Below are positions 1,345 through 20,476 of a DNA stretch of 64,000 bases, piece by piece. Both the position numbers and the translations under genes were made by a program. The DNA lies in contig JACQZF010000048.1 in assembly GCA_016213945.1 (NCBI GenBank), forward strand, positions 33,854 to 97,853. The letters are read 5' to 3'. Below the pieces are notes generated by a model. The model was not told where the DNA came from, did no database searches, and was given only the letters and a program-made list of their open reading frames with translations. Positions within the stretch are counted from its first letter, which is position 1, and the number at the start of each line of letters is the position of its first letter. This DNA comes from Nitrospirota bacterium. Lineage in GTDB: Bacteria > Nitrospirota > Thermodesulfovibrionia > UBA6902.

Positions 1345-3678
1345 TCAAATATTCTCCGTCATCTCCCACACGCCGCAGGGGCAGATGCCGGCGCAGAAGC
1401 TGCAGCCGATGCAGAGGTTTTCGTCAACCACGTATTCGTATGAGCCGTCGGGATTGTCCTTCCTGCTGATCGCCCCGTAATAGCATGTCGCCTCGCACAT
1501 GTGGCAGTCCCTGCATACGGCGCAGGACATGCAGCGGTTGGCCTCTTTTTCAGGGGTGAAGGGCTCGCCTTTGCAGATATCGTAATAGGAGGTTTTTATC
1601 TTTTCATAGGGGACCAGCGGTTTTTTAGCCGGCATGTAATAAGACCTTCCTGCAAGCAGGGCGTGTACGGCGTCAGCGGCCTTTCTGCCGTGACCGATGG
1701 CGTGCGTCACGAGTCCGAGCCTGGTTGCATCGCCGATCGCATAAACCTTGGGATCGGAGGTATGCCCGACTTCGTCAGATTCTATCCAGCCGTTCTTGTT
1801 TGTGTGAATACTTGGAATCAGGAACTCGGTCATTGGCGTATCGCCGATTGATATCACAACAACATCCGCGTCAAGCGATGAGCCGTCGGTGAAGTAGATC
1901 TTCTTTTCTTCCTTTACAAATTTTTCGGTGAACTTCGGCCAGAGGATCTTCGTTCCCAATGCCTGGGCGATCTCAAGCTCCTTGCCGAATGCCGCGGGTT
2001 TCTGAATATCAACTGCCGTCACCTCTTTCGCGCCGCAGTGGAAGGCCTGGGCCGCAACGTCCATTCCTACATTTCCCGCTCCGATGACGACAACTCTCTT
2101 GTCTTTCAATTTCGGGGCATCGCCGATATTTATTCCCTTCAAAAAGTCATATGCGGAAACCGTGTCCTCCGCCCCGGGGACATTCATCATCCTCGGCTTG
2201 TGCGCCCCGCACGCAACTACTACAGCATCATGCTTTTTGTATATATCTTCAAACTTCTTTTTATTCACCGCTGCCTTCAAATGGACTTTCACGCCGATCT
2301 TTTCAAAACGCGAAAGTTCATTTATAAGGACCTCCTGAGGAAGCCTTTCTCTTGGGATGCAGAGTTCGAGTTTGCCGCCAAGCTTTTCCGCTGCCTCGTA
2401 AAGGTCAACGTCATGCCCTTTCAGCGCAAGCTGCCATGCTGCGGACAGTCCGCCGGGGCCGCCGCCGATGATGGCAACTTTTTTGTTTGTCTTTTTCTCG
2501 CGCTTTGGAAGCTTTAAATCAACACTCGCCCTGCCCAGTTCCTTGATATTGAAAGGCGTATCAACTTGCGCCCTTGTGCATGTCTGCATACAGAGGTTGG
2601 GGCATATCTCGCCGCATACTGAAGCGGGAAGCGGGCTGTATTGCAAAACAAGCTCCAATGCCTCATGGAGTTTTCCAGCCCGGATTAGCTGCGCGCGTTT
2701 TTGCGTAGGTATTCCGCTTGGGCATGCGTATTCGCAGGGTGGAGCGTATTTATAATTATTCCAGACAGGCTTATATCTCCTGTCTTCGCCTGTTGTTATA
2801 TACGGAAGAACAGTGAAAGGGTGATTCAGATATTCCGCGAAGATCCCGCCCTTGCCGACACCCGTTTCCCAGATATTACTCCGGAATTCGGCGATGGGCA
2901 TCTTGAAGACTTTCTTCTTCGCGCGTTCCTGCGCTGTGTAGGGGGCGAGCTTTTTCCAATCGTCCTTTGAGCGGGTAAGTGTGTCAAGATATTCGGTGCG
3001 CTCTATTGCCGCAAGATAGGGCTTCATGTTTTCTGTGAGCCATTGCCAGTCCTGATCGGTAAGATCAAGGAGCCTGACATCGCCTTCGCTGTAGCCCTGG
3101 ATCGGCCCGCGGAAATACACCATGCCGCCAACCATGCCGACACACGGGCGGTAGCCTAAAACATTGTCAGGATTCCTCGGATCTACTCCGCAGACAACAG
3201 CAATGCCGCCTGCCTTGAATTCCGCGAATGTATCTCCCACGTCCCTGAAATACCATGACTGAGGCGGGTCGAATTTCGGGTTGTGCTTTGTCATCGTATC
3301 GCAGCGCGCGCCTCCGCTTCCCTGCACATAGAGGACCCCCTGTGCAGCGGCATTGTGTGCGCCGTTAGTGACATCGCCTAACACGGTTATCTTCGCGCCG
3401 CAGTTTATCCAGCCCACATCGTCAGAGGAGCTCCCTTTTACAATAATCTCTGTGCCGTACATGCCCATACTGCCGAGCCTCTGCCCGACAGGCCCTTCCA
3501 CGGTAAGCTTTACAGCCTCGCCTCTTGGCCAAACCCTTCCGCCGATGCCGTGCTGACCGTCAGCAATAATCTGAATTTCGCGCGCGCCCTGTCTGACTGC
3601 GTCCTGGATCTCTTCTTCAAAAATCCTTGACGGGGTGCGCTTGCCTTTGATGTTTCCTTGTAGAGTTATCTTTTTCAT
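1345..3678 (-). CDS. Glutamate synthase domain 3 (GXGXG) fused to a GltD-like NADPH-dependent FAD oxidoreductase and C-terminal 4Fe-4S ferredoxin domains
   Basis: The N-terminus has GXGXG-domain repeats (GQRLGSMGMYG, VLGDVTNGA, VQGSGGARC). The centre has the Fe-S cysteines CEYACPSG/CGEICPNLC, a dinucleotide motif AIIGGGPGGLSAAWQLA and a second motif VVVIGAGNVGMDVA. The C-terminus reads CMSCAVCRDCHMC...CIGCSFCAGICPC. Confidence 0.8.
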   Translation of the reverse strand: MKKITLQGNIKGKRTPSRIFEEEIQDAVRQGAREIQIIADGQHGIGGRVWPRGEAVKLTVEGPVGQRLGSMGMYGTEIIVKGSSSDDVGWINCGAKITVLGDVTNGAHNAAAQGVLYVQGSGGARCDTMTKHNPKFDPPQSWYFRDVGDTFAEFKAGGIAVVCGVDPRNPDNVLGYRPCVGMVGGMVYFRGPIQGYSEGDVRLLDLTDQDWQWLTENMKPYLAAIERTEYLDTLTRSKDDWKKLAPYTAQERAKKKVFKMPIAEFRSNIWETGVGKGGIFAEYLNHPFTVLPYITTGEDRRYKPVWNNYKYAPPCEYACPSGIPTQKRAQLIRAGKLHEALELVLQYSPLPASVCGEICPNLCMQTCTRAQVDTPFNIKELGRASVDLKLPKREKKTNKKVAIIGGGPGGLSAAWQLALKGHDVDLYEAAEKLGGKLELCIPRERLPQEVLINELSRFEKIGVKVHLKAAVNKKKFEDIYKKHDAVVVACGAHKPRMMNVPGAEDTVSAYDFLKGINIGDAPKLKDKRVVVIGAGNVGMDVAAQAFHCGAKEVTAVDIQKPAAFGKELEIAQALGTKILWPKFTEKFVKEEKKIYFTDGSSLDADVVVISIGDTPMTEFLIPSIHTNKNGWIESDEVGHTSDPKVYAIGDATRLGLVTHAIGHGRKAADAVHALLAGRSYYMPAKKPLVPYEKIKTSYYDICKGEPFTPEKEANRCMSCAVCRDCHMCEATCYYGAISRKDNPDGSYEYVVDENLCIGCSFCAGICPCGVWEMTENI

Positions 3679-3698
3679 ATTATCTATATTTCTTGGCT

Positions 3699-3755
3699 GT
3701 CATTCCGGCTTGTTCGGAATCCTTTTTAAGAAGATTCCCGACAAGCGGGAATGAC
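3699..3755. repeat. REP-like palindromic element copy 1 (GTCATTCCGGCTTGTTCGGAATCC...GATTCCCGACAAGCGGGAATGAC) between two glutamate synthase genes
   Basis: Two inverted ~24-nt hairpin units. The termini GTCATTCC...GGAATGAC are shared by all copies. Confidence 0.7.
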
Positions 3756-3803
3756 ATCATTCGGTAACTTCCGCGCTTTTGCTCTTCTGCGCTATTGAAC
3801 TTT

Positions 3804-5465
3804 TTAACATACATAATTAATCTGTAGTCTCTCTGCAATCGCATGGTCGTCTGTGCTGATGCCGTCTGACATGCCGATTGGCAGTTCCGTGCTTCGGCCC
3901 ATTGGGGCGAATATTTTCTTCAACTCTATATCCAATGATTTGTAAACTTCAACCACCCTCTCTGCAACCACATCAGGGTCAAGCCTCCTGTAGAGTTTTG
4001 GGTCCTGAGTCGTGATGCCTCTCGGGCATTTGCCAAGGTTGCATACGTTGCAGCGGTTCATCTCATCTCCATGACAGGCTGCTGCCGCCTGCATGATATA
4101 TTTCCCGATTGAAACAGCGGATGCGCCTAACATGAAGAGCGCTGCAGCATTCGCCGCAAGGTTGCCCTTCTTTCCGACACCTCCTGCCGCAATGAGAGGC
4201 AGTTCATTCTGTTTGCCGTATTTTACGAGGTCGAGATAGCATTCTCTAATATTGGATGCGATGGGATGCCCCATCGTGTCCATTGATACGGCGTATGCCG
4301 CGCCTGTCCCGCCGTCCTCACCGTCAATCGAAAGGGCAGCGGCATACTGATTTCTGACTAAATTATTCAGGACCGCCTTTGCAGTCCGCGTTCCTGAGAT
4401 CTTCGGATAGACAGGGACCCTGAAGCCCCACGCCATGGACATTGACTGGATCATCTTTGCGACAGACTCTTCAATCGAATATTTCGTCTGATGCGTCGGA
4501 GGCGAGGGGAGGTCTACACCCATCGGCACTCCCCGAATCTCTGAGATTAATTTCAAAACCTTGTGCGCCATCAGGAGCCCGCCGTCTCCGGGCTTTGCGC
4601 CCTGCCCGTATTTGATCTCAATCGCGCAGGGGTCTTCGATCATATGAGGGAGCGTCCTGATAATCTCGTCCCAGCCGAAATAACCTGAGGCGATCTGGGG
4701 TATAAAATATTTAATGAACCTCGACTTGAGAAGCCTGTGCGGCATCCCGCCTTCACCTGAGCACATGACAACCGGCATCCCTTCAACTTCATTGAGATAC
4801 GTAATGCCCATTGCAAGCCCTTCCCACATGGTGGGAGAAAGCGCGCCGATGGACATGCTGCCTATCATCACAGGGTATATTTCCCGGACAGGCGGTATGA
4901 ATTTACCGGTAGTTTTATCAGCATCGAGCTTGCCGTCAATCATCTTCAGCGGCAGTTCTTCCGCAGGCAGTATCCTGCCTAAGTACGTACGTATCCTGAA
5001 TTCGTGCCTGCCTGCGTCAAGCGCAGGGTCGGTGAGCATGGAGATTCTTGTAAATCTCAATCTGTCCAAAGTGGAAGGCGACGGATCGTTTCTCCTGCCG
5101 CCCCTTCTGTAGGGATGACCGCCTTTGTTTTTATGGAAGTTGAATTTATGCTGCGGATTATACTCCGGCTCAATTGCCTCGTTGGGACAAACGAGTGTGC
5201 AGGTCCCGCAGCCAATGCAATAGCGTTCTATATTGGTTGTCTGTTTGACCATAGTCGTGACAACCCGCGCTGCTTTGGGTTCAGGTGTCATTCCTTCTGA
5301 CTGTAAAACCCGTTTTACAACAACAACCGGTTCTATTGAAAGCATCGGGCAGACGGCTGTGCACCTGCCGCAGCGTTTGCACCTGTCATCACGCCATCTA
5401 ACAACGTATGGTAGATCTTTTACTGAAAGCTCATGATTATGGTCTAAGCGTGAAGCTGGTTCCAT
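3804..5465 (-). CDS. Glutamate synthase FMN-binding domain protein (archaeal-type domain 2) with an N-terminal 2x[4Fe-4S] ferredoxin
   Basis: It carries CKRCGRCTAVCP / CIGCGTCTLVCP and the Glu_synthase core (GVDLPSPPTHQ..., IDGEDGGTGAA, LIAAGGVGKKGN). Confidence 0.8.
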   Translation of the reverse strand: MEPASRLDHNHELSVKDLPYVVRWRDDRCKRCGRCTAVCPMLSIEPVVVVKRVLQSEGMTPEPKAARVVTTMVKQTTNIERYCIGCGTCTLVCPNEAIEPEYNPQHKFNFHKNKGGHPYRRGGRRNDPSPSTLDRLRFTRISMLTDPALDAGRHEFRIRTYLGRILPAEELPLKMIDGKLDADKTTGKFIPPVREIYPVMIGSMSIGALSPTMWEGLAMGITYLNEVEGMPVVMCSGEGGMPHRLLKSRFIKYFIPQIASGYFGWDEIIRTLPHMIEDPCAIEIKYGQGAKPGDGGLLMAHKVLKLISEIRGVPMGVDLPSPPTHQTKYSIEESVAKMIQSMSMAWGFRVPVYPKISGTRTAKAVLNNLVRNQYAAALSIDGEDGGTGAAYAVSMDTMGHPIASNIRECYLDLVKYGKQNELPLIAAGGVGKKGNLAANAAALFMLGASAVSIGKYIMQAAAACHGDEMNRCNVCNLGKCPRGITTQDPKLYRRLDPDVVAERVVEVYKSLDIELKKIFAPMGRSTELPIGMSDGISTDDHAIAERLQINYVC

Positions 5466-6553
5466 ACCATCACCTCCTGCGCTCCCGGCTTGACGATAAC
5501 CATGTCGTACTTCATGGGGAATATATCCTGAGCTTTATCTCTCACAGATATTACGCTGTCAAGCCCGCACTCCTCGGACATAAATCCGTACTTGCCTTTC
5601 ACGCCGCCGACAACACCCGGCCTGAGTTTCTTGGCGTCCTGGACCATAAGGCACGTCCCGTCCGGCGTAAAGGCAATGACGCAATTCGGGCCGTCTATGC
5701 AGAGCGGTCTCAAGGATATTTTTAACAATCTCGCGACTTCGCTGTCACTTCTTTTATCAATCTCAGACTGTTTAAGCGGCGTAATTACGTCCTTATAATA
5801 TGTAAGCGGATAACCAAGCTGCTTGCAGGTGTAATGCAAAATGTGACAGAAGACTTCGCTGTCGCTGTTGTAACCGATATATCCGGAAAAGTTCCTGCTC
5901 ATTAAAAATTCTCTTATAGGCACGAACGCCGTATTCTCGCCGTTTGTCATCGAGCCGTAACCCTGAATGAAAAAAGGATGACACGCATACATGTTGATAG
6001 CATAATTGGTATTCTGTCTTCCCTGGGCAAAGATAATCTTTGCTTTAAGCGGGGATTTATCAAGGCCGAAAAACTCACTGAGTTCAAGAGGATCGCCTAC
6101 CTCTTTCAATGTCAGGATATCAGGATAGAATGAGAAAACTATAATTGACTCATCACCCTCTCCGAATTTTCTGAGGGCGAGTCTCGTCTTCAGGAGCAGG
6201 TCTTCCTTATCTTCCTGAGCGCTGTATTTGTAGACATCCGGATAATCATAGACACGTGCAAAATAGTGATCGCGGCCAACAATCCCCCTGACCGTTCTGA
6301 GCTTGGGGGTCCAGGTGTATTTCAGTTTGAACCCGAGCTTGTTCATGTAATCATCAAGCGTCTTCATCCCCTCCTTGGAACAAATGCCTGACAGGATAGG
6401 GTATTCCTTCAGCTCCTCAAATTCACCGCCGAGGCTTTTCAGGATAAGCCCCATACCGGAGCCGTCATGCCCTTCCTTCATGGTCTCAAGGGCATTGATA
6501 TTCTCCATCGGAGAGAAGTATTCACTTGATGTTATCGCGGCAAGTCTGCACAT
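5444..6553 (-). CDS. Class II (Ntn) glutamine amidotransferase domain protein (archaeal-type glutamate synthase domain 1)
   Basis: It starts MCRLAAI, giving a Cys2 nucleophile. It is the first gene of a three-gene operon whose order mirrors domain 1-2-3 of GltB. Confidence 0.7.
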   Translation of the reverse strand: MCRLAAITSSEYFSPMENINALETMKEGHDGSGMGLILKSLGGEFEELKEYPILSGICSKEGMKTLDDYMNKLGFKLKYTWTPKLRTVRGIVGRDHYFARVYDYPDVYKYSAQEDKEDLLLKTRLALRKFGEGDESIIVFSFYPDILTLKEVGDPLELSEFFGLDKSPLKAKIIFAQGRQNTNYAINMYACHPFFIQGYGSMTNGENTAFVPIREFLMSRNFSGYIGYNSDSEVFCHILHYTCKQLGYPLTYYKDVITPLKQSEIDKRSDSEVARLLKISLRPLCIDGPNCVIAFTPDGTCLMVQDAKKLRPGVVGGVKGKYGFMSEECGLDSVISVRDKAQDIFPMKYDMVIVKPGAQEVMVWNQLHA

Positions 6554-7435: not shown

Positions 7436-7503
7436 GTCATTCCCGCAAGCGAAGCGCGTCGGGAATCCTTCTTGAAGAAAGATTCCGGACAAGCCGGAAT
7501 GAC
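7436..7503. repeat. REP-like palindromic element copy 2 (between slp and tpx)
   Basis: GTCATTCCCGCAAGCGAAGCGCGTCGGGAATCC-N12-GATTCCGGACAAGCCGGAATGAC. Confidence 0.7.
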
Positions 7504-8560: not shown

Positions 8561-9995
8561 CACATTCTTTATTTAATGTGGTTTCAGGGACAGGCATATA
8601 ATTTTTCAATGCCGTGACGTGTTGCAGCGCGTGTAAATTTTCTACTTCCACGGGTTGGGTTAAATCCCGTGACCTTGCCCTTGCGAGACCCCAAACAACT
8701 ACGGAACAGCCTGTTGCTATAAAACATAAAATTCCCGCAAAGACAAATGCCATGACGTACTGCTGCGTTGCGTCATAGAGCACGCCTCCCACAACAGGGC
8801 CGAGGATGCCTGCAACGCCATACGCTGTAAATATCCATCCGTAGTTTACTCCGAGATTCTTAGTCCCGAAATAGTCGGCGGTTGCCGACGGGAAAAGTGC
8901 AAAGATCCCGCCGTAATTCAACCCTACCCATGCAGAGGCAAGGAATATAGATACGTGTGATTCAACGCTTACAAGTAGCATAAAAGCCATGCCTTGTGCA
9001 AGAAACATAATCATCATGGCACGCGGTCTGTCAATAAGATCACTGACCTTGCCCCAGAAGACGCGTCCGAGTGCATTGAAGATAGCAAGGATGCCGATGG
9101 GTTCGACAAAACGTCCAAAGGTGCCCATCCATTCAGGGGCAAAAGTTTTCCCCTTGAGAATTGCGCCCATCAAAGGATTCCACTGGCCGATAGCCATTAA
9201 TCCTGATGTGGCTCCAAAAATAAATGTGAGCCACAGCATACAGGAAAGCGGTGTATTGAGCATCTCTCTCCACTCTACATCATGCGGAGTCTGATTTTTG
9301 ACCTTACCTGAATTCCAGCCCACGGGCTGCCACCCTGCCGGGGGATTACACAAAAGTGAAGCGCCGAGAATAACGAAAACAGCGCTGGTAAAGCCGTGAA
9401 GGACAAAAAATGTCTGCCAGCCGATCCCAAATCCGTTCCCTTTGGAAATACCGAGGGCTATCATCAGGATTTGTGACAAACCCATGGCCTCTCCTCCTGT
9501 CCCAGGCTGTTGTAAAAGTATGGATGCGGGTCCAGCAAAAAAGAGCGCCCCTGCTCCGAAACCGGCAACTGACAAACCTGTGATCAAGCCCTTTTTATCC
9601 GGGAACCACTTTACTGCGGCGGCAATAGGACAGACATATGCAAATCCTATCCCTGCGCCACCGATAATTCCATATGTGAGATACAGCGTCCACGGATGGC
9701 TTTTGTCAACCAGCAATGCCCCGAGCAGAAAAGAAATGCCAAGAAGGATGCCGCCAAATGATGCTACCTTGCGTGGCCCGATACGGTCCTGCAAACGGCC
9801 TGCCGGGATCATGATAGCGGCAAAGGTGAGCAAAGAAAACGAGAACGCCCACTGAGTTGTTGTGCGGCTCCATCCGAATTCCGCTTCAAGAGGCTTTACA
9901 AAAACGCTGAACGCGTAAACAGTTCCCAAAACTACCTGGACAATCAATGCCCCGGCTAAAACAGTCCAGCGGTTTTTATTTTTTTCTTCATTCAT
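8556..9995 (-). CDS. MFS transporter, oxalate/formate antiporter (OFA) family-like
   Basis: 479 aa with 12 predicted TM segments. The N-terminus (WTVLAGALIVQVVLGTVYAFSVF) is OFA-like. Confidence 0.65.
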   Translation of the reverse strand: MNEEKNKNRWTVLAGALIVQVVLGTVYAFSVFVKPLEAEFGWSRTTTQWAFSFSLLTFAAIMIPAGRLQDRIGPRKVASFGGILLGISFLLGALLVDKSHPWTLYLTYGIIGGAGIGFAYVCPIAAAVKWFPDKKGLITGLSVAGFGAGALFFAGPASILLQQPGTGGEAMGLSQILMIALGISKGNGFGIGWQTFFVLHGFTSAVFVILGASLLCNPPAGWQPVGWNSGKVKNQTPHDVEWREMLNTPLSCMLWLTFIFGATSGLMAIGQWNPLMGAILKGKTFAPEWMGTFGRFVEPIGILAIFNALGRVFWGKVSDLIDRPRAMMIMFLAQGMAFMLLVSVESHVSIFLASAWVGLNYGGIFALFPSATADYFGTKNLGVNYGWIFTAYGVAGILGPVVGGVLYDATQQYVMAFVFAGILCFIATGCSVVVWGLARARSRDLTQPVEVENLHALQHVTALKNYMPVPETTLNKECV

Positions 9996-10142
9996 GCTTT
10001 TATCTCCCGAATAATTGTTATGGTGTCAGCACAGGCGGGGTAACCCCGGCCATACTGAACTAATCGGGTGATGAAGGGGAAATCTTTAGTTAAAAGAATT
10101 CCTCTTGGCTCTGCTTCGGGGTCAATCAGACACTCCTTTGAC

Positions 10143-10219
10143 TGTCATTCCCGCAATTTGTTGAGCGGGAATCCAGAGTCTTTTCATAAAGAACTGGATT
10201 CCCATTTTCATGGGAATGA
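10143..10219. repeat. REP-like palindromic element copy 3 (between the MFS and isochorismatase genes)
   Basis: GTCATTCCCGCAATTTGTTGAGCGGGAATCC...GGATTCCCATTTTCATGGGAATGAC. Confidence 0.7.
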
Positions 10220-10245
10220 CGAAAAAGCGCGGTTGCAAATAAAGT

Positions 10246-10797
10246 CTACTTTATTCTCTTTACTATCGTTACGAACTCAGGCGTCCCGGCTTTTTCGAGG
10301 AGCTGGAACAAGACCGTTTCAGTACATGTGATCACCGCGCCTGCATCGCGCATGAGCTCTCTGCCGGAGAGGAAATCATCTTTCTTCCTTGAGCAGGCAG
10401 CGTCGCTGACAAGATGAACAAAGTATCCTTTTTCTAAAAGTCCCAGACAAGTCTGCAAGACACAAACATGCGTTTCCATCCCGGTGAGAATGATATGTGT
10501 TTTTCTCAACGAGGCGATTTTCTCAAGAAAACCATCTCCCCTGCAGCAGTCGAATGTGACTTTTTCCAGAGGCTCGTAGTGCGGTACGGCTTCTTTAATT
10601 TCCTTAACTGTCTGGCCGAGTCCTTTTGGATATTGCTCTGTAACGAGGATCGGGATGTTCAGTAGCTTTGCGGCTTCAATGAGGTGAAGGCAGTTATCTG
10701 TCACCCGCTGTTTGTGTTTCATCACAACCGCGAGTTTGTCCTGAATGTCCACGATGACGAGTATAGAGTTGTTTCTGTCGAGGATGAATTTGTCCAT
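10246..10797 (-). CDS. Isochorismatase-family cysteine hydrolase
   Basis: It has the ILVIVDIQ... start and a catalytic Cys region (VHLVSDAACS). Confidence 0.7.
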   Translation of the reverse strand: MDKFILDRNNSILVIVDIQDKLAVVMKHKQRVTDNCLHLIEAAKLLNIPILVTEQYPKGLGQTVKEIKEAVPHYEPLEKVTFDCCRGDGFLEKIASLRKTHIILTGMETHVCVLQTCLGLLEKGYFVHLVSDAACSRKKDDFLSGRELMRDAGAVITCTETVLFQLLEKAGTPEFVTIVKRIK

Positions 10798-10808
10798 GAT
10801 TAAAGATG

Positions 10809-11090
10809 CTATTTGCTGCTTGCTCTAAAATTTTCATAAAACTTTTTGCCAAGAGTATCAACGGGCGGAATATTATAATCCTGTTTTTTCACTAATCCGA
10901 GGCAATTCATTTTCTTTAGAAAATTTTGAAGCTTAATAATATCAGGATTCGCTTTACACTTTTGTTGTGCCTTTTCAAGAGTCTCTATGAGCTTATCGAC
11001 TGTATTCATTTTTCCAGCAAGATATCCCTGACTGTTCTGTCTAAATTTTGCATGTAAAATGTCCCCGCATTTTTGTATAAATTTTATCAC
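10809..11090 (-). CDS. Hypothetical small protein (93 aa) directly downstream of res
   Basis: ORF only; no family recognised. Confidence 0.3.
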   Translation of the reverse strand: MIKFIQKCGDILHAKFRQNSQGYLAGKMNTVDKLIETLEKAQQKCKANPDIIKLQNFLKKMNCLGLVKKQDYNIPPVDTLGKKFYENFRASSK

Positions 11091-11123
11091 AGCACTCTAT
11101 AACGTGTGAAGTTAACTCTTAAA

Positions 11124-14048
11124 TCAAAACAACTGACTCTTCACCTTCTGATGTGTGAGCTTTGCGAATTCCATAATGTCTTTAATTGATGCTCCCTTAT
11201 CCCTCAGACTATAAAAAGTGTTTTCACCAAGCAGCGCATAGTTCCACTCGCACTCCATTCTGTCATCTGGTTTCAGATCATTAATTTTATTGAGCCAATC
11301 CAAAGCAGCAAGTTCTTTTTGCCGCACGTTGGCATCGTTCAAATCTTTGGTTGCCTTTGTTTCGACGAGGTAGATTGATGAATTCACCTTTACGATAAAG
11401 TCCGGATAATAAGACGACAGCATACCGTCGTTGCGGATATAATTTAAGTGGGCGAAATCATGATAATTCTCATTGATCTTCACGAAGCTGTTAACCAGAG
11501 AATCGCTGTCACAGAAGAGCATGAATTTTCTCTCTAATTCTCCTTTGTTTGAAGGGTAAGGAAGTTTCTCATATATTGTCTTTGTAATATCGAGAGAATA
11601 ATTTTCACGCATCTTCAATTCATTTACTTCAGAAAAGTATTTCTTGATTACAACCGCCTCTTCAACATCGATATTGTTCTGCATATCATAAATAATCTGG
11701 CTGAGTTCTTTCACGATATGCTGGATAATGCCTGCCTTTGAAAGCATCAGGACACGCCAGTTGTTGTCCTTAAACGGATCAAAGGTCTCATTGAACAGGC
11801 GGTTTCGAATAAAGTCGTCAACAACCTTTATGAGAGATGCATTATTTATTTGCATTACAGGATAATCCTTCATCGTTCTCTGACTGACTTTGACGAGAGT
11901 GCTGGTAATCACTTTAATGATTTTCGCCATCAATTCGTTATAACTTTTGGCGGTGAATAGGTCGCCTGTTACTTTGTAATCTCCAAAACGGGTCTTAACG
12001 GTTATTTCCTCTGAAACAAAAATCTCCTCTTTGGGAACCATCGCCTTGAGTTTATCCAGTTGATACCAGTCAACTCCTGCAAAATATTTTGTGGATGGCT
12101 CCATTACCTGCAAGGTCTCCTCTCTGTCCCTAATAACAATAGGCCAATAAAGATCATAGTCTTTATAGTTGCTTTTCAATCCGACCTTTATGATATCTCC
12201 GAGGATGCTTTCCCGATCTTCAGGCAAATCATGCGTTTCAGCGATAGAACCTTCCTTAACAAGTTCATCATAAAATTCGATAAAGGCAGGGTGCTCAACA
12301 ATACTCAGAATATCGAGATAATTTGACGGCTCTTCTTTTCTTTGTAAAAGCTTGATCCTGTTCTCAGTCTTTATCTCCTGATAATCCGGTTCGCGCCACA
12401 TGAGGCGCAGACCTCTGCCGATGATCTGTTCAAGAAGGATCGGGGCCTGCGTTGACCGCAACGGAACGATAACACAGATATTGCTTACATCAAAACCTTC
12501 CCGAAGCATCAGGACAGATACAATGACCTTCGGGCTGGAATGATTATCTATGTTAAAAAGCCGCTGTTTAACTTTCCCCCATTCCTTTGCAGGTATTGAG
12601 CCTTTCTTGTCTGAATCTATCTGAACAACATCTTCTTCGCCAAGCCCTTCGTTGTCAGCAAGAAACTGCGTCACAAAAGGAGAAACCTTTGTATCCTCGC
12701 ATATCACCAGCATCTTTGGATGCTTGTCTGACATTCCAGATGTATCAGAAGTTAAAGTCACAAACTGTTCTTCCAGTATCATTAATTTCTGCAAGCCTGC
12801 CCTGAGCATGAGCTTCTGCCCGTCAGAAAGACCGACCACTGTATTCCCTTCACGGACAGCTTTGAAATCAAGCTCCATTGTGGCAATCTCCTTACGCTTA
12901 TCAAGAGTAATTGTCTTCACAAGTCCCTGATGAATGGCTGTCTTAAGATCAAAGTCCACGACAATATGAGGGAAGAAATGTTTCGTCCTTTTCTGTCCGC
13001 TTCCGGTCACATCATAGGGAGTTGCTGAAAAATCAATCTGGATAAAACTTCTGCCTTTGCCTTCGGCAATTTTGTTCAGCGATTTCTGCCATTCAACTTC
13101 AGAGACGATACCGGCCTTCTTTGTTTCATGAATGTGGTGCGCCTCGTCATTAAAGACGACCATATTCTCAAGTCCTGCGAGATATTCAATCTCACCCCCG
13201 CTCAAATACTGATTATCGAGAGTTTCGAGGGAATGTCCTGTTGACGTGCCGGGCGTGATCGGGAATATTTCCTTTACCGCCTTTGAAGGGTCTTCCAATG
13301 GAGCTGTCTCAGTGTATTCCTCTTCTTCAACTCCTGACAAGAGATGCCAATTGGTAATGGCGATCATTCCGTCACCGGTAATCTTCTTTCCTATCTCTTC
13401 TTTTCTAACAACATTGGATTGGATAAAGCCAAAGAGTGTTTCTTTATATGCAGAAGGGATGAACAAGTCCTCGAACTTTTTGAAGTCCGATGTGGCAAAG
13501 TTCCTTGTACCGTCCTGTCCTTCCTTGCCCAGATAAGCGTCCAGAAGTCGTTCATATACAATTAAACCCGGCGCTACGATTAAAAACCTTTGGGAATAAA
13601 GACCGCTTGGCGATTCTTCATGTCTTGCATTGAGATATTGCCATATCAAGAGAGCATTCAGCACCCATGTCTTGCCAGTGCCTGTAGCCATCTTGATGCA
13701 GTATTTTGGATGGCTGAATTTGTCTTTTTTGAGATAGGACAGATCCATCTCGGCAGTAATGTCACTGCTAACTGAGGAATACATATCGAACACAGACTCT
13801 GCCTTCAAAATTTCATGAGTATAGATTGTATTCAGGATTGCCTGTCTCTGTCCTTCGTGAAAGTTGACTGTCCTTGCGTCACAGAAGGGACCGGAGAACC
13901 AGAACCTGAGCAGGTCTTGCGTAACCGGCGTAGTTTTGCTGATGAAGCTGCCGTTTTCCCATTCGCTGATTACCAGCGCTGAGAGTTCTTTAGCAAATTT
14001 CAATGGTATGTCGCGCGTGCCTGTGTTAAGAGCAATACTCATAATCAA
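11124..14048 (-). CDS. res: Type III restriction enzyme Res subunit (SF2 helicase plus C-terminal PD-(D/E)xK endonuclease)
   Basis: Walker A MATGTGKT, DEAH box VVFNDEAHH, and a C-terminal ...YLVETKATKD endonuclease-type motif. Confidence 0.85.
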   Translation of the reverse strand: MIMSIALNTGTRDIPLKFAKELSALVISEWENGSFISKTTPVTQDLLRFWFSGPFCDARTVNFHEGQRQAILNTIYTHEILKAESVFDMYSSVSSDITAEMDLSYLKKDKFSHPKYCIKMATGTGKTWVLNALLIWQYLNARHEESPSGLYSQRFLIVAPGLIVYERLLDAYLGKEGQDGTRNFATSDFKKFEDLFIPSAYKETLFGFIQSNVVRKEEIGKKITGDGMIAITNWHLLSGVEEEEYTETAPLEDPSKAVKEIFPITPGTSTGHSLETLDNQYLSGGEIEYLAGLENMVVFNDEAHHIHETKKAGIVSEVEWQKSLNKIAEGKGRSFIQIDFSATPYDVTGSGQKRTKHFFPHIVVDFDLKTAIHQGLVKTITLDKRKEIATMELDFKAVREGNTVVGLSDGQKLMLRAGLQKLMILEEQFVTLTSDTSGMSDKHPKMLVICEDTKVSPFVTQFLADNEGLGEEDVVQIDSDKKGSIPAKEWGKVKQRLFNIDNHSSPKVIVSVLMLREGFDVSNICVIVPLRSTQAPILLEQIIGRGLRLMWREPDYQEIKTENRIKLLQRKEEPSNYLDILSIVEHPAFIEFYDELVKEGSIAETHDLPEDRESILGDIIKVGLKSNYKDYDLYWPIVIRDREETLQVMEPSTKYFAGVDWYQLDKLKAMVPKEEIFVSEEITVKTRFGDYKVTGDLFTAKSYNELMAKIIKVITSTLVKVSQRTMKDYPVMQINNASLIKVVDDFIRNRLFNETFDPFKDNNWRVLMLSKAGIIQHIVKELSQIIYDMQNNIDVEEAVVIKKYFSEVNELKMRENYSLDITKTIYEKLPYPSNKGELERKFMLFCDSDSLVNSFVKINENYHDFAHLNYIRNDGMLSSYYPDFIVKVNSSIYLVETKATKDLNDANVRQKELAALDWLNKINDLKPDDRMECEWNYALLGENTFYSLRDKGASIKDIMEFAKLTHQKVKSQLF

Positions 14049-14364
14049 CTACCCGTCAACTAAATATTATCTTAATAATCAGCTTGTTATCGTAATTGTC
14101 GGTCAAATCTATAATCTCCAATCAAGTATCCAGCTTTGTTAGCCATTTGTTAAACGAATCTTCAGTTTTGCCTTTTTAACAAAGGATAACCCCTTGAAAT
14201 AAATATAGTTAGATGCATAGGACCTTTGATTATTCTTTAATCTCCTTTGTTAAAATCGTGTTCGTTCTGCCTCAGTTGCCTAAGGAGCTATTCTTTGTGC
14301 CTGCATTCAATGAGATGGACATTATCTACCAGCAGCCGCTAAATTATTTTGCCTGCCGAATAAA

Positions 14365-14387
14365 GATTCTGGACAAGCCAGAATGAC
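14365..14387. repeat. Half copy of the REP-like element (GATTCTGGACAAGCCAGAATGAC) in the vapC-res intergenic region
   Basis: It matches the right-hand hairpin unit of the family. Confidence 0.5.
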
Positions 14388-14403
14388 AAAGTTAAGGAAA
14401 ACA

Positions 14404-14787
14404 TTACACAAGTTCAACACCGGCAATCCTTTTGAAATGGTTTTTGTTAATAGTTGCGAGCGGGAGGTTGTAAGCCAGTGAAGTTGCAGCGATAAAAATA
14501 TCCGGAATTTCTATAAGCTTATTTTGGGATTTAAGACCACTGTAAATATCTCTTGCTTTTAGAGCGCATTTTGAATCAAACGGTAGGACATCAATGTTTT
14601 TCAACAGGCTTTTGCCGAACTCCAATTCTCTATCTTTAAAGCCCACCAGCCATTCAAATTCGGTTATAACAGAAATTACCACGCTGTGCTTCCTGGCTAT
14701 CTCTACCAGGATGGCAGTCTCTTTTTTCTGCTTTCTGAAATACTCAACAAGAATTGAAGTGTCAACTAAAACTTTGCCGGTTTCCAT
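14404..14787 (-). CDS. vapC: PIN-domain toxin (VapC-like)
   Basis: 127 aa starting VLVDTSILVEY... with conserved acidic residues. It overlaps the upstream antitoxin. Confidence 0.7.
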   Translation of the reverse strand: METGKVLVDTSILVEYFRKQKKETAILVEIARKHSVVISVITEFEWLVGFKDRELEFGKSLLKNIDVLPFDSKCALKARDIYSGLKSQNKLIEIPDIFIAATSLAYNLPLATINKNHFKRIAGVELV

Positions 14788-14999
14788 CTTTTCATGTCCT
14801 CCCTTACAGCAAGAAAAGCTTTAATGTCATCTTCTCCTAATACAGGTCCCTTCATAAGAACTTCTGAAAGTTTCTTTTTTGTCTCTCTTTTTGTATAAGG
14901 CAAAATAATCACTTCAACCTTTTCATCTTTAAAATCTTCGGGAAGATCGATAACTACCCTTCTGTTTTTCACATTCTTAATCTCTCTTAATGCCCGCAT
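14766..14999 (-). CDS. Antitoxin (VapB/Phd-like) partnered with the PIN toxin
   Basis: 77 aa, overlaps vapC by 22 nt, small charged protein. Confidence 0.5.
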   Translation of the reverse strand: MRALREIKNVKNRRVVIDLPEDFKDEKVEVIILPYTKRETKKKLSEVLMKGPVLGEDDIKAFLAVREDMKRWKPAKF

Positions 15000-15040
15000 A
15001 CAGTTACCTCCTTTCTCATGCTTACTCTATATTATACCCA

Positions 15041-16972
15041 TTACCCCACTTCCTCCACTACCACGCTTTCAAACCCAAACACATCAACCGCCTTCACGCA
15101 GATCCTGCGTTTGCCTTTGACTTTTGGTGATAAGATGCTGACTTCTTTCACGACCCTGAAGGGGTCTGCATCATTGCCAACATTGCTTCTGTAATCCTGC
15201 CATTTACTGCGGAAGGTTTCGCCGTCGTAGTCAGGGTCTACGCTCCAGTATTCAATAAGCGCAAGAGGGTCATGCGCGATGATGTCCTGCAATTTTTCCT
15301 TGTTTGCGTCATCAAGGGGCAGGGCGTCAGGAGAGAGCAGGATGTAATTGTCCAGTTCGATAGTTATTTCATCAATATCGGATGAATAGTTTTTCAGAAC
15401 AGGCTTTTTGATGGAGAGATACTGAAGCGATGAGAAGCGTATCTTGCCGCTTTTCAGGAGGCTTTCATAACTGGACTTTGTCTTGAGCTTGTCGAGAAGA
15501 TCAGGAGGAATAACCAGCACCTCAAGTTTATCGTCGTTGAAGTTCTTGATGACCGTTGCAATATCAAAAACAAAGTTCCAGCCGAGGACTACCACCTTGT
15601 TCCACCCGCCAAGAAAGGACTCCCTCAATTCCTGCGCCTTCTTCAATGTTGCATAGCCGGTCAGTTTTGAAGGGGAATCAACCATGACGAGGGTGCGTGA
15701 ATTTTTGATATATCCAAGGTTGCGATTTGGATTCTGCTCATCAGGGAAGGGTAATGCGCCGTAGAGGTTGAGGACGACCTGCGACAAATCACCGATGCGC
15801 CTGAACAGTCGGCTTGAGGTAAAGGCCTCTTTCTGGTAATCCCCGATTGATTGGTAGAGGAATGGCTTCGCCTCCTGATCTATAAGCCGCTGCCTCGTAA
15901 TCATGATAGCAGGCTTGCCGATGTCGGACATTATCCACCTGCGGCCATTTTTTTCGGCAACTGTTCCGGTAGAGCCGGAGCCGGAGAAGAAGTCGGCGAT
16001 GATGGAATTTTCGTTGGAAGAACTTTTGATGATGCGCTCAAATAGTTTTTCAGGTTTTTGTGTCGTATAGTCAACTCTTTCTTTTGCAACTGGATTGACT
16101 GGCGGAATATCGTCCCAGACCGAATCAACAATATCGCCTTCAACGTCATCTAAATATATTTTTCTTGTACCGCCGCCTGTGGGGTTCACATCCGTTCTGC
16201 ATAATCTTCCTGTTTCATCAGGCTTGAACCTTTTCAAATACTGCTCATTATGCGGTTTGTATTGTGTATTCCAAATGTATGATGCAGACTTCGTGTAAGA
16301 ATAAATCACATCGTGCTTTTGAGGAAACTTTTTTGCCGTAGCTCGCTTAAAACCAAAATATGTCCACACAATTTCATTTCTGAAATTTTCTTTCCCAAAC
16401 ACATCATCCATCAACACCTTCACATAATGCCCGACATGCCAATCAAGATGGACATAGATTGATCCCTGCTCGCTCAGCAATTCTCTCATCAATGCAAGTC
16501 TCGGATACATCATTCGCAGATAACTGACTGTCCCGTCTTTCCATGTGTCGGAATAGGCAAACTGCTCCAGTACGGTCGGCTTCTGTTCGATGGTGGTTCC
16601 GGGCAGGGTGATCTTTGTCCGGTAATCAGCTTTGCTGTCAAAAGGCGGGTCATTATAGATAAGATCAACCTTGCCGCGCATGGAAGGCAAACCGGTTGCC
16701 GGATCACCGGCAAGCAATGCCTGCATCACAAGCAGGTTGTCGCCATAAATAAGCCTGTTGTGCCATTCCTGCTCTGAAATTTCCTTCAGTTGCCCGCGAT
16801 AAAGCCCGGACTTGTCCTTGGATGGCAGCACATACTCATTGGTCTGCAAGGTAAGCTTATTGGTCCCGGACAACCTCTCAAGTATCCGCTCCACTTCCTT
16901 CTTACCCTCGGCAACAATCTTTGATAGTTGGTCGATTAAAGATTCAGGCATGATAAATATATGTCCCTTCAA
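15041..16972 (-). CDS. mod: Type III R-M Mod subunit (beta-class N6-adenine DNA methyltransferase)
   Basis: Motif IV (DLIYNDPPF) precedes motif I (FFSGSGSTG), which is the beta-class order. It lies in the same transcriptional direction as res. Confidence 0.85.
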
Positions 16973-17071: not shown

Positions 17072-17098
17072 GGTATATTGCAGGGGCGGGTTTGAAAC
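17072..17098 (-). terminator. Perfect hairpin CAGGGGCGGGTTTGAAACCCGCCCCTG downstream of acs
   Basis: Inverted repeat; the T-tract is weak. Confidence 0.4.
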
Positions 17099-17122
17099 CC
17101 GCCCCTGTAGGGAAATTAAAAG

Positions 17123-20418: not shown

Positions 20419-20476
20419 GTCACTCCGGCTTGTCCAGAGTCTTTCTTAAAAAGGATTCCCGACAAGCGGGAATGAC
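20419..20476. repeat. REP-like palindromic element copy 5 (between the antiporter and kinase genes)
   Basis: GTCACTCCGGCTTGTCCAGAGTC...GGATTCCCGACAAGCGGGAATGAC. Confidence 0.7.

Follow-up and report, generated by a model that had tools for sequence, protein, structure and literature searches.

How does a complete toxin–antitoxin (TA) pair come to lie between the two genes of a restriction–modification (R-M) system, and is it tied to the enzyme that encloses it? The question is raised by a locus of the Nitrospirota bacterium assembly GCA_016213945.1 (contig JACQZF010000048.1), within a stretch of 64 000 nucleotides (nt) that was analysed as a whole and that we call the window. Here the methyltransferase gene (mod) and the restriction gene (res) of a Type III-like system lie on the same strand, mod upstream of res, but 998 nt apart, with a vapBC-type pair between them (see the table). 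In the family to which this system belongs, the mod–res junction is a recombination-prone slot where cargo recurs, and which repeatedly gains and loses small TA pairs, membrane proteins and larger defence genes. For the window itself, the explanation that we favour, with reasonable rather than strong confidence, is that vapBC is an autonomous cassette sitting in this slot, where it probably stabilises the R-M island and may act as a backup abortive defence.

The four open reading frames (ORFs) of the preliminary description of this DNA (mod, a vapB-like gene, a PIN gene and res) were all recovered on the minus strand in the ORF read-out, and the 355-nt spacer with a REP-like (repetitive extragenic palindromic) element that it placed between the PIN gene and res is present (14049–14403). 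An intact Type III-like R-M pair is thus held on an island of about 6 kb, acquired horizontally and low in GC (0.36–0.46 inside the island versus 0.47–0.51 in its flanks). An assembly artefact was ruled out as the source of the arrangement by two independent Sequence Read Archive assemblies, L164 and L165 (related loci carry L numbers throughout), in which the 3′ end of mod, vapB and vapC are found at 100% identity to the window; the match to L164 extends 213 nt into the spacer.

Table. Features of the R-M island, in order of transcription (positions in the window).
Feature	Position	Strand	Assignment and basis
mod	15041–16951 (mechanical ORF to TTG at 16972)	minus	Type III-like β-class N6A/N4C DNA methyltransferase
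Candidate vapBC −10 element, TATAAT	15031–15036	minus	directly 3′ of the mod stop codon (15041–15043); read from sequence
vapB-position antitoxin gene, 77 amino acids	14766–14999	minus	position, ribosome-binding site, conserved pairing
vapC	14404–14787	minus	PIN-domain toxin (predicted RNase); PF01850
REP-like hairpin	14365–14387	minus	one copy of a dispersed intergenic repeat
Radical-SAM 3′ end/res-start relic	14282–14367	minus	nucleotide match to L081
res leader	14043–14200	minus	conserved; aligns with the sequence preceding res in L161
res, 972 amino acids	11124–14042 (ORF to 14048)	minus	SF2 helicase/ATPase and C-terminal PD-(D/E)xK nuclease

The two outer genes had been described as a Type III R-M pair, and the architecture of both products, a Mod methyltransferase and a Res with superfamily 2 (SF2) ATPase and nuclease domains, bears this out. 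Mod matches Pfam N6_N4_Mtase (3.4e-42), the PADLOC model MTase_III PDLC03633 over its full length (1.1e-76, covering residues 43–612 of 616) and, in the PDB, the Type III methyltransferases Mbo45V (1.3e-14) and EcoP15I Mod (5.4e-13). As read in the translation, motif IV (DPPF, around residue 108) precedes motif I (FFSGSGSTG, around residue 335), the order of the β class, as expected of a Type III Mod. Close homologues start at MPESLI, which corresponds to the ATG at 16951, so that mod probably starts there too. Between close alleles the central region of Mod is variable, in keeping with an internal target-recognition region, and its ends are 94–96% identical. The 735-residue Mod of L081 (L081 2995–5202) has two in-frame insertions compared with that of the window, one reading 'PLNPLLDKEGRGVV' and the other, of about 45 residues, containing 'PPLNPLPSRAGNKEGV...GECKGEGG'; both look like translated dispersed-repeat elements inside the coding sequence.

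In Res, an SF2 ATPase at the N terminus is joined to a PD-(D/E)xK nuclease at the C terminus, as in Type III Res proteins. It matches ResIII at 6.1e-14 and PADLOC REase_III at 2.4e-23, while its Helicase_C match (2e-4, 22.0 bits) stays under the Pfam cut-off of 23.5. An alignment of 18 members shows as invariant KMATGTGKT (Walker A), NDEAHH, GRGLR (G542 R543 G544 L545 R546) and the nuclease residues P880-D881...E894-x-K896. Homologues start at the ATG at 14042, giving 972 residues, and since more than 100 of them span 966–987 residues, res is neither truncated nor frameshifted. Truncation or inactivity of res had been named as an observation that would undermine the capture of the TA pair; the gene is full length with its catalytic motifs kept. 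The class assignment is to be read with some care. Unlike the similarity of Mod to its Type III counterparts, none between Res and EcoP15I Res was detected in the PDB with a single sequence or a profile. The match to NF012027 reaches 27 bits (cut-off 564), and that to NF046055, the BPTD_3080 family restriction endonuclease and nearest NCBIfam equivalog, totals 205.5 bits in three stretches, under the cut-off of 800. Res is thus related to the BPTD_3080 equivalog yet outside its membership, and forms a lineage separate from the EcoP1I/EcoP15I Res family. As it has no EcoP15I Res similarity and falls under the BPTD_3080 cut-off, 'Type III-like by architecture' is the safe label. The gene order, mod then res on one strand, is that of EcoP1I/EcoP15I and Mbo45V; unlike those of the Type III prototypes, the two genes of the window are not adjacent.

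We compared 149 loci encoding both genes; they came from metagenomes, from genomes representing individual species and from searches with the nearest Res proteins. The family, of about 5000 members, spans bacteria and archaea, and conjugative plasmids carry it too. As had been presumed, mod and res usually adjoin each other in this family: the gap between them is at most 103 nt in 106 of the 149 loci (71%), mostly between −26 and +45 nt. It is at least 200 nt and contains cargo in 43 (29%), so that an occupied junction is not peculiar to the window. About 20 cargo families occur there, as identified with Pfam and NCBIfam. TA pairs were found as HigB/HigA (nine loci), ParE-like/ParD-like (two) and YoeB-type (two), all 13 on the opposite strand, and because these relatives hold an antisense pair at the junction, res evidently can do without co-transcription with mod in this family. 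Other cargo comprises TcmP with a CX3CX3C radical-S-adenosylmethionine (radical-SAM) protein, AIG2-like, GIY-YIG, RusA-like and PLD-like proteins, an IS200-type transposase, the TrlF ATPase and AlbA_2 proteins. Twelve further junctions (L010, L012, L108, L110, L114, L119, L120, L129, L130, L131, L134 and L146) hold small same-strand proteins of 74–241 residues with one to six hydrophobic segments, in eight unrelated families with no Pfam match; their classification as membrane proteins is backed by the segment counts.

Parsimony on a neighbour-joining Res tree of 130 loci places an empty junction at the root, with at least 19 changes between occupied and empty states and at least 27 changes of cargo type. 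Since the empty junction is the ancestral state of the family, the vapBC pair is an acquired insertion, as had been proposed with the suggestion that it may have been captured into the operon. The relatives were also checked for an ancestral, widespread mod–vapBC–res operon, which would speak against capture; the ancestral junction is empty instead. Cargo is not simply a mark of decay either, because 28 of the 43 cargo-bearing loci match both mod and res in full, each in a single alignment.

The closest relatives illustrate this turnover. The Res of L161 is 92–93% identical to that of the window and its junction is empty, with a Mod cut at residue 459; the Res of L081 is 91% identical, with a synonymous divergence (dS) of 0.61, and its junction holds a TrlF-family ATPase, a Schlafen/AlbA_2 protein and a radical-SAM protein. 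Measured over the whole gene, the dS of Res from the window to these two loci is 0.55–0.61, so sister alleles differ in cargo. In L162 and L163 (Res 81–83% identical) the junction contains TcmP and the radical-SAM protein. This pair, the 'three-Cys-motif partner' TcmP (TIGR04474) and a CX3CX3C radical-SAM gene of about 270–290 codons, recurs at the junction in distant family members (L162 5857–7838, L163 5852–7848 and L090 2132–4181, as well as L091 and L092), and the radical-SAM gene occurs alone at L081 9168–10001 and L166 3032–3901. The pair may add a further module to this R-M family, for DNA modification or for defence.

The mod–vapBC–res arrangement is found in two further Nitrospirota lineages besides the window. 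In L177 and L178 (VapC 69% identical) the four genes form a tight operon, with 93 nt between mod and the vapB–vapC pair and 12 nt between the pair and res. In L166–168 (VapC 74% identical) the junction holds radical-SAM and AlbA_2 genes besides vapBC, and both mod and res carry large internal deletions, although vapBC is intact. A '394-aa unknown' of L166, considered as possible cargo, proved to be Mod with residues 74–307 deleted. The three carrier lineages are deeply diverged: dS is 1.35–1.68 for vapC and at least 1.5 or saturated for res, compared with 0.5–0.9 for the conserved ends of mod. Because the mod ends are by this measure younger than vapBC and res, the loci are mosaics. An idiosyncratic, recent event is therefore not supported; the arrangement is old, recurrent or both, and the dS comparison of the three carriers did not separate one ancient insertion from repeated captures.

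The toxin of the cassette is a PIN-domain protein and a predicted RNase. It matches PF01850 (2.1e-16, 61 bits against a cut-off of 23.6), and a profile of its family matches the solved VapC toxins of Rickettsia (PDB entry 3zvk; 9.3e-14) and Shigella (PDB entry 3tnd; 5.9e-13), which it resembles as a PIN protein of about 127 residues with D9, E43 and D96, invariant in 19 homologues. Both NCBIfam VapC models score under their cut-offs (53 against 140, and 51 against 80). As in other VapBC systems, a small gene in the antitoxin position lies upstream, overlapping vapC by 22 nt, and the unit moves between genomic contexts. A strong ribosome-binding site (AAAGGAGG, 15014–15007) precedes it, and the vapB–vapC pairing is kept in the loci of VapC homologues L166, L169, L170, L171, L176 and L177; because the pair is kept across several unrelated contexts, vapBC is a genuine two-gene module.

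The antitoxin is a less familiar protein. Its family comprises 116 cluster representatives of 70–85 residues, and searches of Pfam, NCBIfam, PADLOC and the PDB, including those with a 60-sequence profile, returned no match. An AlphaFold model built from three sequences was unusable (predicted local distance difference test score, pLDDT, 43), and we used the model from 60 sequences (pLDDT 86.7, predicted template-modelling score 0.38), which has an extended N-terminal half and two C-terminal helices; Foldseek found no match to it. Unlike the antitoxins of described VapBC families, that of the window therefore shows no recognised AbrB, ribbon–helix–helix (RHH), Phd or helix–turn–helix (HTH) domain. 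The earlier label 'vapB-like' stands as regards position and conserved pairing, whereas the DNA-binding fold that the name might imply could not be assigned by profile, PDB, AlphaFold or Foldseek analysis; the label is positional.

Upstream of vapB, the TATAAT box (15036–15031 in the window) and AAAGGAGG are kept about 30–45 nt from the gene in L166, L169 and L170, which differ in context, and similarity between the cassettes of these three loci stops at the vapC stop codon. The cassette would thus measure about 0.65 kb and, it seems, include a promoter of its own. Among the six closest VapC lineages (at least 65% identity), three lie at a mod–res junction (window, L166 and L177) and three elsewhere: L169 alone, L170 near an Mrr-type gene and L176 in a TA array. 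The more distant vapBC pairs of L171–174 also have no Type III system nearby. This occurrence of the same pair away from any Type III system (L169, L170, L171–174 and L176) argues for the autonomy of vapBC, and its intact state in L166–168, where mod and res have decayed, argues for its persistence without the enzyme.

What lies between vapC and res bears on how the cassette arrived. A segment of the spacer is 75.6% identical over 86 nt to L081 9956–10040, the junction between the radical-SAM stop codon and the res start (E = 1.5e-10 against the six close-relative subjects, 4.8e-9 against all loci). This relic comprises the last 45 nt or so of a radical-SAM gene and about the first 13 codons of res (MSISLNAGTKNSSLGN; MSISLNAGTK...), followed by a stop; it was seen in the nucleotide comparison, and a tblastn search of the spacer for radical-SAM, AlbA_2 and TcmP remnants found none. 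Next to the relic lies the REP-like hairpin GTCATTCTGGCTTGTCCAGAATC (ATTCTGG-CTTGT-CCAGAAT), a member of a family with four copies in the window, against 0.00 expected from shuffled sequences, scattered through intergenic DNA. A simple scan flags the hairpin as a terminator; this candidate was rejected, as the stem is not favoured in an RNA fold (z = −1.14) and is followed by a weak T-tract. Because the spacer keeps a radical-SAM 3′ end and a dead res start, and then runs into a leader common with the sister locus, it is better explained, on its sequence, as the recombination or deletion scar of earlier cargo than as the footprint of a repeat-mediated insertion. Capture of the TA pair by way of the repeat element, one of the routes first envisaged, is not supported: L177/L178 and L166–168 have mod–vapBC–res without any REP hairpin, and the repeat family is dispersed over the intergenic DNA of the window. 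Further dispersed intergenic palindromes lie in the window at 17083–17105, 10197–10220, 3699–3721, 7481–7503 and 20419–20441 (GGGGCGGGTTTCAAACCCGCCCC, GTCATTCCCATGAAAATGGGAATC and three more GTCATTCYGGCTTGTYCRGAATC hairpins); GGGGCGGGTTTCAAACCCGCCCC stands directly 3′ of the stop codon of an acetyl-CoA synthetase gene, and other contigs of Nitrospirota (L171, L172) have related copies.

The res leader is conserved in L161 (6506–6680), with 72% identity by blastn and 75% when averaged over the columns of an alignment, and its RNA fold has a z-score of −2.07. The leader region contains a 13-nt perfect inverted repeat (14174–14186 and 14243–14255; TTTTAACAAAGGA and TCCTTTGTTAAAA) with its arms 56 nt apart, and TTTGTTAAA is present a third time at 14146–14154. 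The repeat might serve as an operator or attenuator, or else belong to a degenerate mobile element. Rfam gave no match over 13900–15200. A promoter-like site at 14153–14125 scores 9/12 but is not kept in L161, and 20 such sites in the region compare with 12.7 ± 3.5 expected. A promoter and terminator between vapC and res were thus looked for by scan, L161 alignment and RNA fold: no conserved promoter could be called and the hairpin is unconvincing as a terminator. The suggestion that the insertion may uncouple res from mod is plausible.

In the explanation that we favour, vapBC would be an ordinary autonomous module, transcribed from its own −10 box and by read-through from mod. VapB would neutralise the PIN ribonuclease (RNase) VapC and repress the operon, the latter assumed by analogy, as VapB has no recognisable DNA-binding fold. 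Loss of the island or a halt of VapB synthesis would then leave VapC to arrest growth. The main consequence would be stabilisation of the R-M island, with a second-line abortive response as a side benefit, and the proposal involves no specific molecular link of vapBC to Mod or Res. Res would probably be made by read-through, by initiation within the conserved leader, or in both ways. A Type III Res acts only together with Mod, as in EcoP1I and EcoP15I, and a loosened coupling between mod and res should for this reason be harmless.

Several points weigh against this proposal. Three of the six closest VapC lineages sit at this very junction, which is above what simple hitch-hiking would lead one to expect, and the start of res 12 nt after vapC in L177/L178, in a tight four-gene operon, would suit a functionally integrated unit. 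Throughout the VapC subfamily, N114/H117 stands where other VapBC toxins have the fourth acidic PIN residue. No AbrB, RHH, Phd/YefM or HTH fold was recognised in VapB by family, profile or structure searches, and the promoter of the cassette is predicted from the −10 box. Finally, the search patterns bias the sample of loci, whose members are moreover not independent of one another.

We may ask whether VapBC and the other junction cargo are instead second-line suicide effectors functionally tied to the enzyme, with VapC set free to abort the infection once a phage has inhibited or escaped Mod and Res, in the way that PrrC acts with EcoPrrI and RonA with HsdMS. We regard this as rather unlikely. 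The anticodon nuclease PrrC, encoded in the Type Ic hsd locus, offers a close parallel in that an RNase toxin gene lies among R-M genes. The system that houses the toxin of the window is Type III-like, however, and this toxin has its own antitoxin, whereas it is the restriction enzyme that keeps PrrC inactive. Genes of the HEPN/PIN or PrrC type in Type I R-M loci have been proposed as a second line of defence when restriction is blocked (PMC12707154; PMC3710099), and a small effector tied to R-M subunits (Ronin, i.e. RonA with HsdMS) and a Type III system wired to programmed cell death (EcoR22I) have been described (bioRxiv 10.1101/2023.04.06.535777), all of which lends support to such a link. 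Furthermore, the effector gene is embedded between two enzyme subunit genes on the same strand, in the window as in L166–168 and L177–178; the arrangement is kept in three deeply diverged lineages, one of them with a tight four-gene operon; and the junction cargo of relatives consists mainly of toxins and small membrane proteins. The membrane proteins of the 12 hydrophobic-cargo loci are like RonA in size and hydrophobicity, a positional resemblance, while the cargo of the window, unlike that of Ronin, is a soluble PIN TA pair and not a membrane peptide. On the other hand, a complete TA pair needs no external guard, and it stays intact where mod and res have decayed. Consistent linkage of the effector family to the R-M family, as would be expected of a guarded effector, was not found: half of the six closest VapC lineages, and L171–174, carry the same cassette family without any Type III system. 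The cargo families are heterogeneous and the other TA pairs antisense, and opportunistic insertion fits this better than a dedicated partnership.

A more elaborate form of the same idea would make the mod–res junction a dedicated docking slot for guard effectors that are expressed with the enzyme and fire on its inhibition. These would include PIN, RelE-fold and ParE-type toxins, RonA-like membrane peptides and TrlF-type ATPases; the guard of the window would be VapBC, whose autoregulated promoter would raise res transcription when VapB is degraded. We consider this improbable.

There is little to recommend the insertion as a regulatory device, in which res expression would be reset by the spacer or by a vapBC promoter under autoregulation, either delaying Res on entry into a new cell or boosting res when VapB is degraded under stress. 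The conserved −10 box does travel with the cassette and lies upstream of res, the res gene of L177 follows vapC after 12 nt, and the leader that precedes res in the window is structured and contains the perfect 13-nt inverted repeat. However, the 355 nt between vapC and res in the window include a hairpin and a dead res start, the leader is common to L161, which has no vapBC, and neither a conserved promoter nor a terminator can be called. Moreover, classical Type III res genes have been reported to have their own promoters.

The least credible explanation of all is that one or both modules are dead and the arrangement a snapshot of erosion, for despite the truncated Mod of L161, the large internal deletions in mod and res of L166 and a spacer that is itself debris, the four ORFs of the window are full length with conserved catalytic residues, and the ratio of nonsynonymous to synonymous divergence (dN/dS) is low (0.08 for Res compared with L081, 0.11 for VapC compared with L166).

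The slot itself, family-wide, is a more interesting lead than the locus of the window. Toxin and abortive-infection genes in Type I loci are already documented, and a survey that does not mention Type III has listed PIN-like TA genes with transcriptional linkage to Type I subunits (PMC5499597). A full-text literature search, with subscription journals outside its cover, found no description of TA genes between Type III mod and res. With this locus and its relatives, the Type I theme of embedded toxins (PrrC, Ronin, PIN/HEPN) extends to a large Type III-like family across bacteria and archaea. Should the cargo be functionally tied to the enzyme, the junctions would be a natural panel of restriction-linked suicide effectors, including uncharacterised membrane peptides and the TcmP/radical-SAM pair; should it be untied, they would be a clean example of how the conserved gene ends of a mobile operon make a recombination hotspot for selfish cassettes. 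As to annotation, mod and res genes about 1 kb apart should still be called one system.

Some observations concern the surroundings of the island. Directly downstream of res, still in low-GC DNA, lies a minus-strand ORF of 93 codons (10809–11090); it has no match in Pfam, NCBIfam or PADLOC, and no homologue among the loci with which it was compared. The window (1345–6553) and L161 (11455–16587) have a three-gene cluster in common, encoding proteins of 777, 553/513 and 369 residues (glutamate-synthase-like), at 79–84% amino-acid identity. In L161 the R-M island lies across this cluster from its place in the window and is inverted, so L161 was rejected as a strictly syntenic empty-site comparison; between the two genomes there has been either a move of the island or a rearrangement of its neighbourhood. 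In L161 an MNT–HEPN pair lies upstream of the R-M genes (3889–4660) and a DarT and Macro-domain (DarG-like) pair downstream (9701–11434): TA modules gather around the R-M system as well as inside it.

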